A stretch of 64,000 nucleotides of DNA from Caulobacteraceae bacterium. Lineage in GTDB: Bacteria > Pseudomonadota > Alphaproteobacteria > Caulobacterales > Caulobacteraceae. The notes beneath the pieces were generated by a model that worked only from the letters and a program-made list of their open reading frames with translations, was not told where the DNA came from and did no database searches. Shown one piece after another: positions 1,490 to 5,872 of the stretch. Location of the stretch: NCBI GenBank assembly GCA_035295705.1, contig DATGIN010000003.1:3476-67475 (forward strand), given 5' to 3'. How positions within the stretch are numbered: position 1 is the stretch's first letter; every line of letters starts with the position of its first letter. Made by a program: the position numbers and the translations under genes.

Positions 1490-2599
1490 CTACGGCTGCG
1501 TGATGCGCCCGCCTGTCATCGGGGCGGCGACGCCGGTCGTGCCCGGGAAGGAGATCGGCAAGCCCAGCAGGCAACGGGCGGCGAGATAGGCGAAGGCCTC
1601 GGCCTCGACCGAGTCACCTCGCCAATGCGCCTCTTCGGCGGTCAGCATCGGAAACGGCAAGGGGTCGTGGATCATCTTCATGAGTGTCGGGTTGTGCCGT
1701 CCGCCGCCGGTGACCACCAGGCGAAGCGGCGTTTCCGACAACGCCTTCAGCCCCAGCACGACCGCGCCGGCCGCAAACGCCGTGAGCGTCGCGGCGGCGT
1801 CCTCGAGGCTGAGCGCCCCGACCGGATCCAGCGGGAAGTCGAACCGGTCGAGCGATCTAGGTCCTGTGCGACGGAAGTACGGGTGCTCGAAATAGGCCGC
1901 GACGGTGGCGACATCGAAGCGGCCGGCGGCGGCGAGCGCGCCTCCGGCATCGTAGCGGCCCGCTCCCCTCGTCTGGACAAGCTGGTCGATCATCCCGTTC
2001 GCCGGCCCACAATCGAACGCCTCGAGGATGCCGTCGGAGCGGACCAGCGTGAGGTTCGCCACTCCACCCAGATTCAGCACCGCCGTCGGCGGAGCCAGGT
2101 TGGAATATCGAACGAGCGCGGCGTGGTAGACCGGCGCCAGCGGCGCCCCCTGCCCGCCTGCCGCGATGTCGTCGGAGCGGAAGTCGTAGGCGACCGCAAC
2201 GCCGAGGCCGCGGGCGACCGCGGCGGCGTCGACCAGCTGCACGGTCCGCCCTTGGGGCCGCTCCGGCGTCGGCGGCGCGTGCAGCACGGTCTGGCCCTGC
2301 AGCCCGATGAGGTCGATGTCCTCGGGCAGGAGGCGATGCCGGCGCATCAATTCCTCGCCCGCCGCGATGTGCTCTTCGGCGATCGCGGTCGCCGCGGCGG
2401 CGAAGCTCGCGGGGGGCGCGTCCCCCGGCGAAGAGCGCAAGGCGTCGGCGATCGCCGCCTCGACCAGCGCCCGGACCGGCGGGTCGAGCGGCTTCTCGCC
2501 TACCGGCCCCAGCCGCTCGATCGCCTCGCCGTCGGTCTCGATGACCGCCGCATCGACCGCGTCGAGCGAGGTCCCCGTCATGAAGCCCAGGATACGCAT
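1490..2599 (-). CDS. anmK: Anhydro-N-acetylmuramic acid kinase
   Basis: N-terminal GFMTGTSLDAVD, GGQGAPL, NLGGVAN, FDCGPAN, GGGRHN, EAEAFAYLA motifs; divergent from tyrS. Confidence 0.95.
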   Translation of the reverse strand: MRILGFMTGTSLDAVDAAVIETDGEAIERLGPVGEKPLDPPVRALVEAAIADALRSSPGDAPPASFAAAATAIAEEHIAAGEELMRRHRLLPEDIDLIGLQGQTVLHAPPTPERPQGRTVQLVDAAAVARGLGVAVAYDFRSDDIAAGGQGAPLAPVYHAALVRYSNLAPPTAVLNLGGVANLTLVRSDGILEAFDCGPANGMIDQLVQTRGAGRYDAGGALAAAGRFDVATVAAYFEHPYFRRTGPRSLDRFDFPLDPVGALSLEDAAATLTAFAAGAVVLGLKALSETPLRLVVTGGGRHNPTLMKMIHDPLPFPMLTAEEAHWRGDSVEAEAFAYLAARCLLGLPISFPGTTGVAAPMTGGRITQP

Positions 2600-2604
2600 G
2601 GGCG

Positions 2605-2634
2605 TTGACTGCCATAGGCCCGCGCCGCTACCAA
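2605..2634 (+). promoter_or_regulatory. Housekeeping sigma70-type promoter for the tyrS leader
   Basis: TTGACT (2605-2610), 16 nt, GCTACCAA (2627-2634), close to the Caulobacter sigma73 consensus TTGACG...GCTANAWC; implies a start near 2640. Confidence 0.55.
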
Positions 2635-2643
2635 GCGGCCGCC

Positions 2644-2694
2644 ATGACCGGAACGGCTCGCCTCAGCCGCCGCTACTACCGCTCGCACCTCTAG
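2644..2694 (+). CDS. Putative tyrS leader peptide MTGTARLSRRYYRSHL
   Basis: ATG...TAC TAC...TAG read from sequence; tandem Tyr codons immediately followed by the 5' arm of a hairpin (CCGCTCG 2679-2685 / CGAGCGG 2698-2704). Confidence 0.6.
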   Translation: MTGTARLSRRYYRSHL

Positions 2695-2796
2695 GGACGA
2701 GCGGCCGGTCCAGCACGCCCAGCCGCCCGCGAAGGCCGGCTTCGGGCTCTTGCAAAGAGACGGTCTCCGGCCGAAAGCCACATCAAGGATTCCGTC

Positions 2797-4071
2797 ATGC
2801 CGCCAGACGCAGCAACGCCAGCCTTCAAGCCGAAGTCCGACCTCGTGCGGACCTTGCTCGAGCGCGGCCATGTCTACCAGGCGACCGACCTCGCTGGCCT
2901 GGACGCGGCGGCGGCCAAGGGCCCGATCACCGGCTACATCGGCTTCGACGCCACCGCCTCGTCGCTGCACGTGGGCAGCCTCGTGCAGATCATGACGCTC
3001 CGCCGCATGCAGGAGACGGGGCATCGGCCGATCGTCCTGATGGGTGGCGGAACGACGAAGGTCGGCGATCCCTCTGACAAGTCGAGCCAACGTCCGCTGC
3101 TCTCCGACGCGCAGATCGCGGCCAACATCGCGGGCATCCAGCGCGCGTTCGCGCCTTTCCTGCGCTTCGGCGATGGGCCGACCGACGCTGTCATGGTCAA
3201 CAACGCCGACTGGCTGGAGGCGCTCGGCTACATCGAGTTCCTCCGTTCGTTCGGGGTGGAATTCACCCTCAACCGGCTGCTGACCCTCGAGTTCGTCCGC
3301 TCACGGATCGATAACGAGCTGCCGCTGACGGTGCTCGAGCTCAACTACGTCTTGATGCAGGCGGTCGACTTCCTCGAGCTGCACCGGCGCCTGGGCTGCA
3401 GGCTGCAGTTCGGCGGCTCCGAGCAGTGGGGCAACATCGTCAACGGCATCGACCTGATCCGCCGGCTGGACGGTGCGGAGGCCTTCGGCGTGACAGCGCC
3501 GCTGGTGACCACAGCGTCCGGCGTCAAGATGGGCAAGACGGTAGAGGGCGCCGTGTGGCTGAATCCGGAGCTGTTGGGCGCCTACGACTACTGGCAGTTC
3601 TGGCGCAACACCGACGACGCGGACGTGGGCCGATTCCTGCGCCTATTCACCGATTTGCCGCTGGACGAGATCGAACGGCTGGAGCGTCTCGGCGGGGCCG
3701 AGATCAACGAAGCCAAGAAGATCCTGGCAAACGAGGCCACCGGCCTGCTGCACGGGCCCGAGGAGGCGGAGTCCGCGGCGCTCACCGCAAAGGCGGCGTT
3801 CGAGGAGGGCCGCACGGCCGACGCTCTCGCCGGCCTGCCCTCGGTCGGCCTGCCGGAGACGACCTTCCGCGGCATGTCGAACACGCAGCTGATGGTTGCG
3901 GTCGGCTTTGCGACGTCCAACTCGGACGCACGGCGGCAGATCGCCGGCGGCGGCTTCCGCATCGACGGCGTAAAGGTCGCCGACGCCGACGCGCCCGCGC
4001 GCATCGACGGACGCGAAGCCGAACTGCGCAAGGGCAAGACCCGCATTCGTTTCTTTCTTGAGGAGGCGTGA
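2797..4071 (+). CDS. tyrS: Tyrosine--tRNA ligase
   Basis: YIGFDATASSLHVGS (HIGH), QWGNI, KMGKT (KMSKS), C-terminal S4-like domain. Confidence 0.97.
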   Translation: MPPDAATPAFKPKSDLVRTLLERGHVYQATDLAGLDAAAAKGPITGYIGFDATASSLHVGSLVQIMTLRRMQETGHRPIVLMGGGTTKVGDPSDKSSQRPLLSDAQIAANIAGIQRAFAPFLRFGDGPTDAVMVNNADWLEALGYIEFLRSFGVEFTLNRLLTLEFVRSRIDNELPLTVLELNYVLMQAVDFLELHRRLGCRLQFGGSEQWGNIVNGIDLIRRLDGAEAFGVTAPLVTTASGVKMGKTVEGAVWLNPELLGAYDYWQFWRNTDDADVGRFLRLFTDLPLDEIERLERLGGAEINEAKKILANEATGLLHGPEEAESAALTAKAAFEEGRTADALAGLPSVGLPETTFRGMSNTQLMVAVGFATSNSDARRQIAGGGFRIDGVKVADADAPARIDGREAELRKGKTRIRFFLEEA

Positions 4072-4074
4072 ACG

Positions 4075-4545
4075 ATGGCCAAAGAACTGGCGGTGGGCGA
4101 CGCTGCGCCCGACTTCGACCTGGAGGCGGATGGCGGCAAGCGCGTGCGCCTCGGCGATTTCAAGCGACGCAAGCTCGTTCTCTACTTCTATCCCAAGGAC
4201 GATACGTCTGGCTGCACCACCGAAGCGAAAGCGTTCGCCCAGGCGGCCAGCGATTTCGACGCCGCGGGCGCGTCGATCGTCGGGGTGTCCAAGGACTCCG
4301 TGAAGAGCCACGACAAGTTCAAGGCCAAGTACGAGCTCAACTTCGCGCTCGGCTCCGACGCCGACGGGCAGGTGATGGAGCGCTACGGCGTCTGGGTCGA
4401 AAAGAGCATGTACGGGCGCAAGTACATGGGCACGGAGCGCACGACGCTGCTCATCGACGGGGGCGGCCGCATCGCAAAGATCTGGCGCAAGGTGAAGGTG
4501 CCCGGGCACGCGAAGGCCGTGCTGGATGCGGTTCGCGCCCTCTGA
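4075..4545 (+). CDS. bcp: Peroxiredoxin BCP/PrxQ (single Cys)
   Basis: LYFYPKDDTSGCTTEA peroxidatic motif, GVSKD, ERTTLLID. Confidence 0.93.
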   Translation: MAKELAVGDAAPDFDLEADGGKRVRLGDFKRRKLVLYFYPKDDTSGCTTEAKAFAQAASDFDAAGASIVGVSKDSVKSHDKFKAKYELNFALGSDADGQVMERYGVWVEKSMYGRKYMGTERTTLLIDGGGRIAKIWRKVKVPGHAKAVLDAVRAL

Positions 4546-4702
4546 GCATCGCACCTTCTGCGCCGGAAGAGGCCGGGCCTGAAGCCGCTTGCCGCAACGC
4601 AGCCGGACGAAACGCCGCGCTGTGCGCATGGGCTCGGCCGGTTGCCTATGCCGTACCGGATGGGTCATAACGCGAAGGACGCTCGAGGTGGGGTCCGCGC
4701 GG

Positions 4703-5872
4703 ATGGTCGTCGACCAACTGACACGGTTGCGAGGCTTTCTGGAGCGCACCTTTCCCGAGCGTCATGTCTATGTCCGCTCCGGCGGCGGGACCGTGAAGGG
4801 CGTCGTGCTGACGACGCGCCACCAGACCCTCGCGGCCGGCGGGGCATCGTTGCTCGGCCTGTGGCTCCTGGTCTGCACCGCGACGGTCTTCATCGGCGCC
4901 GTCTCCCCGAGCCCGGCGGATCGCGCCGCCGCCCGGATGCAGGCGTACTATGAGCGACTGACCGCCGACCGGCAGGCGAAGCTCAACAGCGCCATGGCGC
5001 AGCTCAGCGACACGAACGGCGCGCTCGGCGAGCTGGCGCGTTCGGTCGAGACCCGTCATGAGGCGCTGGCTCTCTTGCTGACCGAGGCGAGGGGCGAACC
5101 CGGCGCGGCGCAGGCGCTTGCTCCGGCGCCCATGCCAGCCCTGGCCAACGCCAATCCCCTCGCCGGCGTGCGCGCCGTCGAGCAGGACCAGGACCGACTG
5201 ATCGCCCAGGCGGAAACCTACGCCAAGTCGAAGGCCGACCGCCTGCGCCTCGCCTTCCGGCTCGCCGGGCTCGACCCTGCGTCATTTAGCCCCGTGAGCG
5301 ACGACAACCTGGGCGGCCCGCTGATCGAAGCGAAGGACCCACGCGCGCTCGCCGCCATCCTCGACGTCGATCCCGCATTTGCGCAGCGCATCCAGAGCGC
5401 CGCCACCGACCTGTCGGACATGCGGGCGTTGAGCGGCGTGGCGCGGTCGCTGCCGCTCGGATTCCCAACCCTCGCCTCGCAAACGCACCGCACCAGCGGG
5501 TTCGGCGTCCGCATCGATCCGTTCACCGGCCAGCGCGCGTTCCACCCGGGAGTCGATTTTGCGGGACCGATGTACACCCCGGTGCATGCGACAGCGCCTG
5601 GGGTGGTCTCCTTCGTCGGGCAGCGCAACGGCTACGGCAACGTGGTCGAAATCGATCACGGCCACGGCCTAAAGACACGGTTTGGCCATCTCGCCGCGAT
5701 TTACGTGCAGGTGGGCCAGCACGTCGCTATCGGTACGAAGCTGGGCGGCATCGGTTCAACCGGCCGCTCGACCGGGCCGCACCTGCACTACGAGGTGTGG
5801 GTTGACGGTCGGCTGCAAAACCCTGAACGTTTCCTGGAGGCTGGCCAATATGTTCAGCAAGCAACCCAATAA
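4703..5872 (+). CDS. M23 (LytM) endopeptidase with N-terminal TM and coiled coil (LdpA/LmdC-like)
   Basis: HPGVD (HxxxD) and STGPHLHYEV (HxH) Zn motifs; TM helix; overlaps downstream bactofilin gene. Confidence 0.9.
   Translation: MVVDQLTRLRGFLERTFPERHVYVRSGGGTVKGVVLTTRHQTLAAGGASLLGLWLLVCTATVFIGAVSPSPADRAAARMQAYYERLTADRQAKLNSAMAQLSDTNGALGELARSVETRHEALALLLTEARGEPGAAQALAPAPMPALANANPLAGVRAVEQDQDRLIAQAETYAKSKADRLRLAFRLAGLDPASFSPVSDDNLGGPLIEAKDPRALAAILDVDPAFAQRIQSAATDLSDMRALSGVARSLPLGFPTLASQTHRTSGFGVRIDPFTGQRAFHPGVDFAGPMYTPVHATAPGVVSFVGQRNGYGNVVEIDHGHGLKTRFGHLAAIYVQVGQHVAIGTKLGGIGSTGRSTGPHLHYEVWVDGRLQNPERFLEAGQYVQQATQ

Follow-up and report, generated by a model that had tools for sequence, protein, structure and literature searches.

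A candidate tyrosine-sensing leader peptide upstream of tyrS in the Caulobacteraceae

In Escherichia coli, pheM-pheST and the trpL/hisL/pheL class of leaders contain a short open reading frame (ORF) whose sensor codons specify the amino acid that the controlled gene deals with, and pheST encodes an aminoacyl-tRNA synthetase. In this class, the sensor codons mark the beginning of a hairpin, segments 1 and 2 flank the stop codon, and the pairings 1:2, 2:3, and 3:4 are mutually exclusive; in trpL, the sensor codons are in tandem. In Firmicutes, tyrS is controlled by a T-box (RF00230), which distinguishes uncharged from charged tRNA-Tyr by binding the tRNA directly, without translation. In Caulobacter crescentus, leaders for trpS (CCNA_03913) and ilv were found by ribosome profiling, and the text of that study discusses these leaders only (Schrader et al. 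2014, PMC4117421). Here we describe a leader upstream of tyrS, the gene for tyrosyl-tRNA synthetase (TyrRS), in 64,000 nucleotides of DNA from a Caulobacteraceae bacterium (contig DATGIN010000003.1; the whole stretch is "the window"). The leader shares all of the above features with the pheM-pheST/trpL class, has the same regulated gene and the same predicted signal as the T-box, and comes from the same family as the C. crescentus leaders, one of which is also a small coding sequence (CDS) ahead of an aminoacyl-tRNA synthetase gene.

We propose that the element is a ribosome-mediated, tyrosine-sensing leader-peptide attenuator of tyrS, with a probability of roughly three in four. That a ribosome senses the supply of Tyr at the leader is, by itself, likely. 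An earlier note on the window, made from the sequence alone, had proposed a ribosome-mediated leader with Tyr codons for tyrS. The promoter, the 16-codon ORF, the tandem TAC codons, the hairpin arms, and the Shine-Dalgarno (SD) sequence are each present where that note placed them. The proposal itself is strongly supported by comparative evidence, namely the ORF, its frame, its Tyr codons, the hairpin, a link to tyrosine genes, and a mapped start of transcription at the corresponding site of C. crescentus.

Conservation and coding signatures of the leader

A 16-codon ORF with Tyr at codon 11 is found upstream of tyrS in about 20 of 30 related tyrS loci. In these loci, it is followed by a hairpin whose loop contains the stop codon, by a conserved GC hairpin, and by the near-invariant block AGACGGTCTCCGGCC. 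A covariance model (R1) that we built from 26 leaders matched 237 of the 401 sampled Caulobacteraceae genomes (59%), from 17 of 27 genera, and nearly always in one copy. Among the high-quality genomes, 213 of 332 had a match, and in one large genus, 80 of 82 did. The window's own genome has a single match, the copy at tyrS. Where relatives have no anmK next door, the leader is still found at tyrS, and weaker but genuine relatives of the leader are present in other alphaproteobacterial families. As the earlier note had suggested, we looked for a short ORF with Tyr codons and for covarying stems; the ORF is conserved across the Caulobacteraceae, and the pairings P0, P1, 2:3, P2, and P4 (see below) covary.

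The leader is not universal within the window's genus. At one locus (L023, genome G006), there is an apparent natural deletion of the sensor: the promoter TTGACTGCCAC and ATGATCGTCGTCCGCTAG (5 codons) run into tyrS, GGAGACCGCCTATG. Another genome of this genus (G004) lacks the leader altogether, as do several genera.

We compared coding signatures across 64 distinct leader copies, of which 57 precede tyrS and 7 precede a gene for prephenate/arogenate dehydrogenase. The start codon is ATG in 58 copies and GTG in 6, and the stop codon is TAG in 56, TGA in 6, and TAA in 2. The ORF has 16 codons in 56 copies, 15 in 6, 17 in one, and 18 in one, and all of the insertions and deletions are of whole codons. 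There are 10 codons ahead of the first Tyr codon in 61 copies and 9 in the other 3. Codons 3-10 vary freely in each of their three positions (1.2-1.8 bits). The sensor pair is Tyr-Tyr in 57 of the 64 copies, Tyr-Arg in 5, and Tyr-Cys in 2. All 64 copies thus share the first Tyr codon, with zero entropy at its first two positions and only T or C at the third; this count comes with an ascertainment caveat, as our regular expression for leaders demanded Tyr at a set number of codons from the start. Even so, the ORF was intact in 49 of 50 loci that came from the covariance model or its match list (L111-L160), and the exception is an indel-ridden assembly.

Codon usage also has a pattern. GC content climbs with codon position, from 0.69 to 0.75 to 0.83. 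The first Tyr codon is TAT in 43 of the 64 leaders (67%), versus 16% TAT in the downstream genes, and the second sensor codon is nearly always TAC (the window has TAC TAC). Rare sensor codons are familiar from classical attenuators.

All 64 copies have a TTGAC -35 box at 35-39 nt upstream of the leader's start codon. With this spacing, transcription should start 0-3 nt before the AUG, so the mRNA is predicted to be leaderless, with no SD of its own. The -10-like element is kept in relatives as GCTACC, GTAGCTAG, or GTACCA, and its form in the window, GCTACCAA, presumably fits the consensus for Caulobacter sigma-73. The promoter is of the alphaproteobacterial type, and a scan of the window for E. 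coli-type promoters found no match there. Judging from these patterns, the leader is a conserved mini-ORF that is evidently coding, and Tyr is its only constrained codon identity.

In one genus of the Caulobacteraceae, several genomes have a second copy of the leader, directly upstream of a gene for prephenate/arogenate dehydrogenase, which is the committed enzyme of tyrosine synthesis. These copies (L141-L147, from genomes G209, G352, G319, G344, G299, G380, and G289) encode peptides that include VTRALRLRQRYYRSPR and MTAARLRQRYYRSPS. The proteins encoded behind them have 318-323 amino acids and the Pfam domains PDH_N and PDH_C, and they match NCBIfam NF005694 with 484 bits (the cut-off is 409). 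Related leaders with Tyr-Tyr, MTTSPILSGLYYAPLP and MTKAPFIAGLYYPSLS, precede another gene of the PDH family in two other alphaproteobacterial families, and a related Tyr-Tyr leader precedes tyrS in a metagenome-assembled genome of Ensifer and in another family. Given the copies before a tyrosine-synthesis gene, the element is linked to tyrosine and not just to tyrS.

Sister leaders with other sensor codons were seen as well. Two loci from other alphaproteobacterial families (L161 and L165; near position 1505 of each locus, minus strand) encode MTGRRHHFGWYFTSLP and MIVPARATRWYFSATS, with Trp-Tyr-Phe at codons 10-12. Besides a canonical terminator, they have one helix at the start codon and another that sequesters the SD, and they lie before a gene for a GNAT acetyltransferase; L161 has no aromatic-pathway gene downstream. 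In the window's own genome (L194, contig C115), there is an upstream ORF of 11 codons, MGREGPKTGRW*, about 145 nt upstream of trpS. Its single Trp codon is the last sense codon before the TGA, so its build is unlike that of the Tyr leader. This ORF may correspond to the trpS leader CDS that was reported in C. crescentus.

Positions 2605-2799 of the window are the whole control region of tyrS, and the parts are listed in Table 1. The gap from the leader ORF to tyrS, which is on the same strand, is 102 nt.

Table 1. Parts of the tyrS control region and adjacent genes in the window
Feature	Position	Strand	Remarks
-35 box TTGACT	2605-2610	+	Promoter of the leader and tyrS; sequence check
-10-like element GCTACCAA	2627-2634	+	Alphaproteobacterial GCTANAWC type; 16-nt spacer from TTGACT
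Predicted transcription start, about 3 nt 5' of the leader AUG	2641	+	From the distance to the start site in C. crescentus (36 nt) and the family spacing of 35-39 nt
Leader ORF, 16 codons, MTGTARLSRRYYRSHL	2644-2694	+	ATG at 2644; stop TAG at 2692-2694
Sensor codons TAC TAC (Tyr11, Tyr12)	2674-2679	+	Sole Tyr codons of the ORF
P0 5' arm GACCGG, overlaps the leader start codon	2646-2651	+	Pairs with 2705-2710; minimum free energy (MFE) fold and pairing test
P0 3' arm CCGGTC	2705-2710	+	Pairing test
Segment 1 (P1 5' arm) CCGCTCG	2679-2685	+	Begins at the last base of Tyr12
Segment 2 (P1 3' arm) CGAGCGG	2698-2704	+	With 2694-2697, alternatively pairs with segment 3 (2722-2728)
Segment 3 (P2 5' arm, AGCCGCC)	2721-2728	+	Pairing test
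Segment 4 (P2 3' arm, GGCCGGCT)	2734-2741	+	No U tract behind
P3, small hairpin CTCTT-GCA-AAGAG	2747-2759	+	Weak in the window
Anti-SD block GACGGTCTCCGGCC	2759-2772	+	Near-invariant columns; best conserved stretch of the leader
tyrS SD AAGGA (2785-2789), CCGTC, and start codon	2785-2799	+	P4: 2787-2789 with 2766-2768, and 2792-2796 with 2759-2763
tyrS, tyrosyl-tRNA synthetase, 424 amino acids	2797-4071	+	Pfam tRNA-synt_1b, 6.6e-67
anmK	1490-2599	-	Divergent neighbor, outside the element

A probable counterpart in Caulobacter crescentus

The gene order is the same in C. crescentus NA1000, with anmK (CCNA_01945) at 2086909-2088006 on the minus strand and tyrS (CCNA_01946) at 2088215-2089540 on the plus strand (Schrader et al. 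2014, PMC4117421). A gene for an M23 peptidase lies farther downstream of the NA1000 tyrS, whose start at 2088215 was verified by liquid chromatography-mass spectrometry (LC-MS; PMC4117421). Between its tyrS and this gene, C. crescentus has thioredoxin peroxidase. The window has a similar order at 4075-5872, with an ORF of 156 amino acids at 4075-4545 and an M23 peptidase with DUF5930 at 4589-5872.

The earlier note had also pointed to data on transcription start sites (TSSs). Global 5' rapid amplification of cDNA ends (RACE) found a primary TSS at 2088068 on the plus strand that was assigned to "CCNA_03958, NEW", and its signal depended on tobacco acid pyrophosphatase (26.9 versus 1; Zhou et al. 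2015). In the same study, RNA-seq coverage jumps from 31 to 462 across this TSS, and the promoter motif TTGACTGCCATGGCGGTGAAACGGT is reported at -36 (Zhou et al. 2015). The motif TTGACTGCCAT starts 36 nt before this TSS and is the same -35 box as in the window. Thus, the primary TSS is as far from the -35 box as the leader start is in relatives, and it is assigned to a small CDS. From the TSS to the start of tyrS is 147 nt (2088215 - 2088068), and in relatives, the next start codon comes 134-162 nt after the leader AUG. There is also a strong internal TSS at 2088259, with a coverage of 214 just upstream of it (Zhou et al. 2015). Given the coverage of 462 at the leader, about half of the leader signal appears to continue toward tyrS in minimal medium.

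The CCNA_039xx numbers were given to new CDSs that were added after ribosome profiling, and the series includes the trpS leader, CCNA_03913; it also labels RNAs that were noted as translated (PMC4117421). From its position and promoter spacing, we infer that CCNA_03958 is the homolog of the leader ORF. We did not find a functional description of CCNA_03958 in the searchable literature.

In many genera, 23-36 additional in-frame codons separate the start that the leader would release from the usual start of TyrRS (L007, L009, L014, L016, L022, L026, L059, L138, L148-L155, and L190-L193; in C. crescentus, 2088215-2088284). These extra codons hold a second promoter-like sequence, CTTGGG...GTGCTAMACGC. 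In C. crescentus, the upstream start is the one that was verified by LC-MS, and the internal TSS at 2088259 lies inside the extension. In such genera, a long TyrRS that is controlled by the leader probably coexists with a constitutive short TyrRS. At locus L013, the extension is replaced by a separate short upstream ORF, and the window's clade has lost the extension segment.

Pairings, proposed mechanism, and alternatives

To test each proposed helix, the duplex energy of a leader's own two segments was compared with that of segments from different species (3000-5000 permutations). P0, which pairs the first 8-12 nt of the leader, including its start codon, with the stretch after P1, has an energy of -11.6 kcal/mol for own segments versus -10.0 kcal/mol (z about -6, 0/5000). 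Compensatory pairs in P0 include ATGACCGG/CCGGTTCAT, ATGACCCGC/GCGGGATCAT, ATGATCAGC/GCTGATC, TTCGAAC/GTTCGA, and GTGAACC/GGTTTAT. For P1 (segments 1 and 2), z = -6.4, and on the model-fitted alignment, 10 copies have a UA>CG change and 7 have CG>UA/AU, all of them compensatory. The alternative 2:3 pairing (z = -3.3, 2/3000) and P2, which pairs segments 3 and 4 (z = -4.0), are also supported. P4, in which the anti-SD block pairs with the tyrS SD and the bases before the AUG, has z = -5.7 (0/3000) and is present in the MFE structure. P3 has z = -2.3, and relatives carry the variants CTCTTGCCAAGAG, GTCTTCGGGAAGAC, and GTCTCGGGAGAC. Three control pairings gave no significance in this test. In distant relatives, P0, P1, P2, and P4 are all retained, although the sequences are unrelated.

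Thus, the mutually exclusive 1:2, 2:3, and 3:4 pairings are all supported, and segment 1 is located at the Tyr codons. On average, the 2:3 hairpin has -14.9 kcal/mol (-14.7 in the window) and P2 has -10.5, so these two are real competitors. The P1 hairpin was already in the earlier note's set of structures, but the start-codon helix P0 and the 2:3 alternative, both of which covary, were missing from it.

Two other approaches were less informative. RNAalifold on a MAFFT alignment recovered only P1 and a long-range GGTCGG:CCGGCC helix; the columns were shifted, and we replaced this analysis with the anchor-based pairing tests. The fold of the window's single sequence is only weakly better than that of shuffled sequences (z = -1.87), which is unconvincing alone, so it is conservation that makes the leader significant.

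We infer the stalling, the sign of the regulation, and the last step (release of the SD or termination), and the stalling scheme is drawn by analogy with the trp, phe, and pheST attenuators. The sigma-70-type promoter would start the transcript 0-3 nt before the leader AUG, and six segments of this RNA would interact. If charged tRNA-Tyr is plentiful, the first (pioneer) ribosome would reach the stop codon and cover segment 2; P2 would then form, P4 would shut the ribosome-binding site of tyrS, and little TyrRS would be made. In relatives with a U tract at P2, transcription would also end there. If charged tRNA-Tyr is scarce, the ribosome would stall with Tyr11 or Tyr12 in its A site and cover segment 1, and the free segment 2 would pair with segment 3 and block P2. 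The free GGCCGG (of segment 4) and/or CGGCCGG (of segment 2) could then capture the CCGGCC next to the anti-SD while the SD is still untranscribed, which would leave the SD open and raise the synthesis of TyrRS. If no ribosome is loaded, P0 and P1 would fold, so the default state would be off, and P0 would confine sensing to ribosomes that load during transcription.

tyrS is essential and we found no second promoter between the leader and tyrS in the window's genome, so the switch has to be leaky. As with the pheST attenuator, its effect is probably to tune expression within modest limits.

The step from the stalled ribosome to the SD is the weak point, and we do not claim this relay as shown. 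The complementary blocks in the window are CGGCCGG (2702-2708), GGCCGG (2734-2739), and CCGGCCG (2767-2773); also, GGCTTCGG (2738-2745) can pair with CCGAAAGCC (2771-2779), with one bulge. The earlier note had wired CGGCCGG at 2702-2708 to CCGGCCG at 2767-2773. The potential for this pairing is strong in all copies, and a folding snapshot that ends at 2775 shows it in the window, but we found no covariation to support it. With the ribosome masked as stalled and transcripts that end at the tyrS AUG, the accessibility of the SD rises by more than 0.1 in 19-21 of the 64 copies and falls in 6-7.

Several observations weigh against the attenuator as proposed. The compared sequences are related, so the permutation z-scores overstate their independence. 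The two pairings that would open the SD do not covary: segment 4 with CCGGCC (4:5) has strong complementarity, and CGGCCGG with CCGGCCG (2:5) averages -16 kcal/mol. In equilibrium folds of full-length leaders, the accessibility of the SD is the same without a ribosome as with one on the Tyr codons or on the stop codon, and in the window's own sequence, P4 persists in all states, including the snapshots that end at the tyrS AUG. P2 in the window is not followed by a U tract, which makes classical termination doubtful. P0 sequesters the leader's own start codon, which can be reconciled with translation only on kinetic (co-transcriptional) grounds. The leader has no more than two sensor codons, and in seven relatives there is just one. 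Finally, among public RNA runs, no transcript data matched the window or three relatives.

If Tyr is sensed, the odds that the output in the window's genome is mainly translational are a little short of even, while mainly premature termination is a minority possibility. As a rival reading, the latter would have the same sensor, P2 as a weak intrinsic or Rho/NusG-assisted terminator, and P4 as a constant damper outside the switch. We consider this less likely than not, yet a serious alternative, and the evidence is divided. The 1:2, 2:3, and 3:4 logic is that of the classical attenuators, with all three pairings supported, and in the distant relatives L108, L161, and L165, there is a canonical stem with a U tract exactly at P2 (for instance, GCCGCCGCAGACCGGCGGCATTTTCGTTTTG). 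P4 occurs alongside true terminators in distant relatives and is independent of the sensor in equilibrium folds. The coverage in C. crescentus drops from 462 to 214 between the 5' end of the leader and the internal TSS, but this drop may also reflect RNA stability. Against this reading, most Caulobacteraceae copies, like the window, lack a U tract after P2: as the earlier note had stated, the leader has no intrinsic terminator, our scan of the window found no terminator-like site, and P2 is followed by TCGGGCTCTTGC. (By eye, there are pyrimidine-rich tracts after P2.) And no part of the leader is as well conserved as the anti-SD/CCGGCC block, whose conservation is beyond what a passive damper would need.

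The other alternatives do away with the sensing of Tyr codons. An untranslated structured RNA might sense tRNA-Tyr, TyrRS, or tyrosine directly (like a T-box, the thrS operator, or a riboswitch), with the ORF as a by-product. The leader is indeed highly structured, with a helix over the would-be start codon, and its YYRS codons overlap the P1 stem, so that the conservation of the peptide is partly at the RNA level. But the Tyr codon is outside P1 and its third base toggles only synonymously, the indels are of whole codons, the three stop codons interchange, as do ATG and GTG, and the distance from promoter to AUG is fixed at a leaderless spacing. The sister leaders have Trp-Tyr-Phe at the same codons, which can be read by a ribosome and not by an RNA with a single ligand, and the CDS at the matching position in C. 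crescentus has a CCNA_039xx number, as does the published trpS leader CDS. Our Rfam scan of the leader, even at E ≤ 10, found no T-box or leader family, just four chance matches to miRNA or viral families below their thresholds. We rejected a T-box in particular, as there is no covariance match and the coding signatures of the ORF argue against a reading as a specifier loop. We consider a structured RNA of this kind very improbable, and we give just as little credence to a TnaC-like arrest peptide, which would respond within the exit tunnel to free tyrosine or some other ligand, or to a small protein that acts in trans. The C-terminal Y-Y-R-S-P is conserved, 4-5 codons before the stop, and the leader peptide peTrpL of Sinorhizobium meliloti does act in trans (PMC7298713). 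On the other hand, residues 2-10 are not conserved, R-S-P tracks the P1 stem and its compensatory mutations, and for tyrS and a tyrosine-biosynthesis gene, induction by an excess of tyrosine would be control in the wrong direction. Least probable of all is that the small ORF regulates nothing and is just a constitutively translated upstream ORF or an accident close to the promoter. The element does seem to be dispensable, as 164 of the 401 Caulobacteraceae genomes have no match to the model and L023 carries a deletion remnant, but its conservation, its covariation, and its association with tyrosine genes all argue for a role.

If the element is a Tyr-sensing attenuator as we propose, we tentatively suggest a more specific picture, which is unlikely to hold in full. 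It would be a one-shot, purely translational attenuator of an aminoacyl-tRNA synthetase gene: the AUG is later locked in P0, so only the pioneer ribosome would report on the supply of Tyr-tRNA. A stall of this ribosome would redirect co-transcriptional folding (2:3, then capture of CCGGCC/anti-SD), so that the tyrS SD would never be sequestered. The Caulobacteraceae would have turned an ancestral, terminator-based attenuator for aromatic amino acids into a terminator-free translational switch, while the ancestral type would persist, with U tracts and Trp-Tyr-Phe or Tyr-Tyr leaders, in other Alphaproteobacteria. The switch would control a small Tyr regulon (tyrS and tyrC), and in genera such as Caulobacter, it would drive a starvation-specific TyrRS with an N-terminal extension, alongside a short form that is made constitutively.

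Significance and comparison with known attenuators

The control of tyrS outside of T-box systems is poorly known, and this element is widespread, with relatives in other Alphaproteobacteria. It couples tyrS to tyrosine biosynthesis, and it is apparently present in the model bacterium C. crescentus as an unexplained "NEW" small CDS. Its build (a leaderless sensor ORF, a start codon within a covarying helix, no U tract, and an anti-SD block) may reveal how attenuation is achieved in GC-rich genomes without good intrinsic terminators. It is also a template for finding further leaderless sensor ORFs, such as those with Trp-Tyr-Phe. In Rfam and the open literature, we found no leader with Tyr codons for tyrS or for alphaproteobacterial prephenate dehydrogenase; papers behind subscriptions, such as a 2004 survey of proteobacterial attenuators, may hold a prior prediction.

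Among known leaders, trpL (rnTrpL) of S. meliloti is similar in that it is alphaproteobacterial, its leaderless transcript starts at the leader AUG, and it senses an aromatic amino acid (PMC10117765). It has its own features: it senses Trp, it controls trpE(G) via an intrinsic terminator, and both its RNA and its peptide have functions in trans. We found no relation between it and the tyrS leader by sequence or in Rfam. The polycysteine leaders of mycobacteria, as described in the accessible part of a preprint (bioRxiv 10.1101/834739), are also leaderless sensor ORFs that control downstream genes in a GC-rich genome. They have runs of Cys codons and belong to a different phylum. Compared with the pheM-pheST/trpL class, which it matches in its sensor ORF and its alternative pairings, the tyrS leader differs in that it senses Tyr, in that its mRNA is leaderless and without an SD for the leader, and in having an extra helix at the start codon. 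Its 3:4 hairpin lacks the U tract that is a defining feature of that class, and it adds a conserved helix between the anti-SD and the SD of tyrS.

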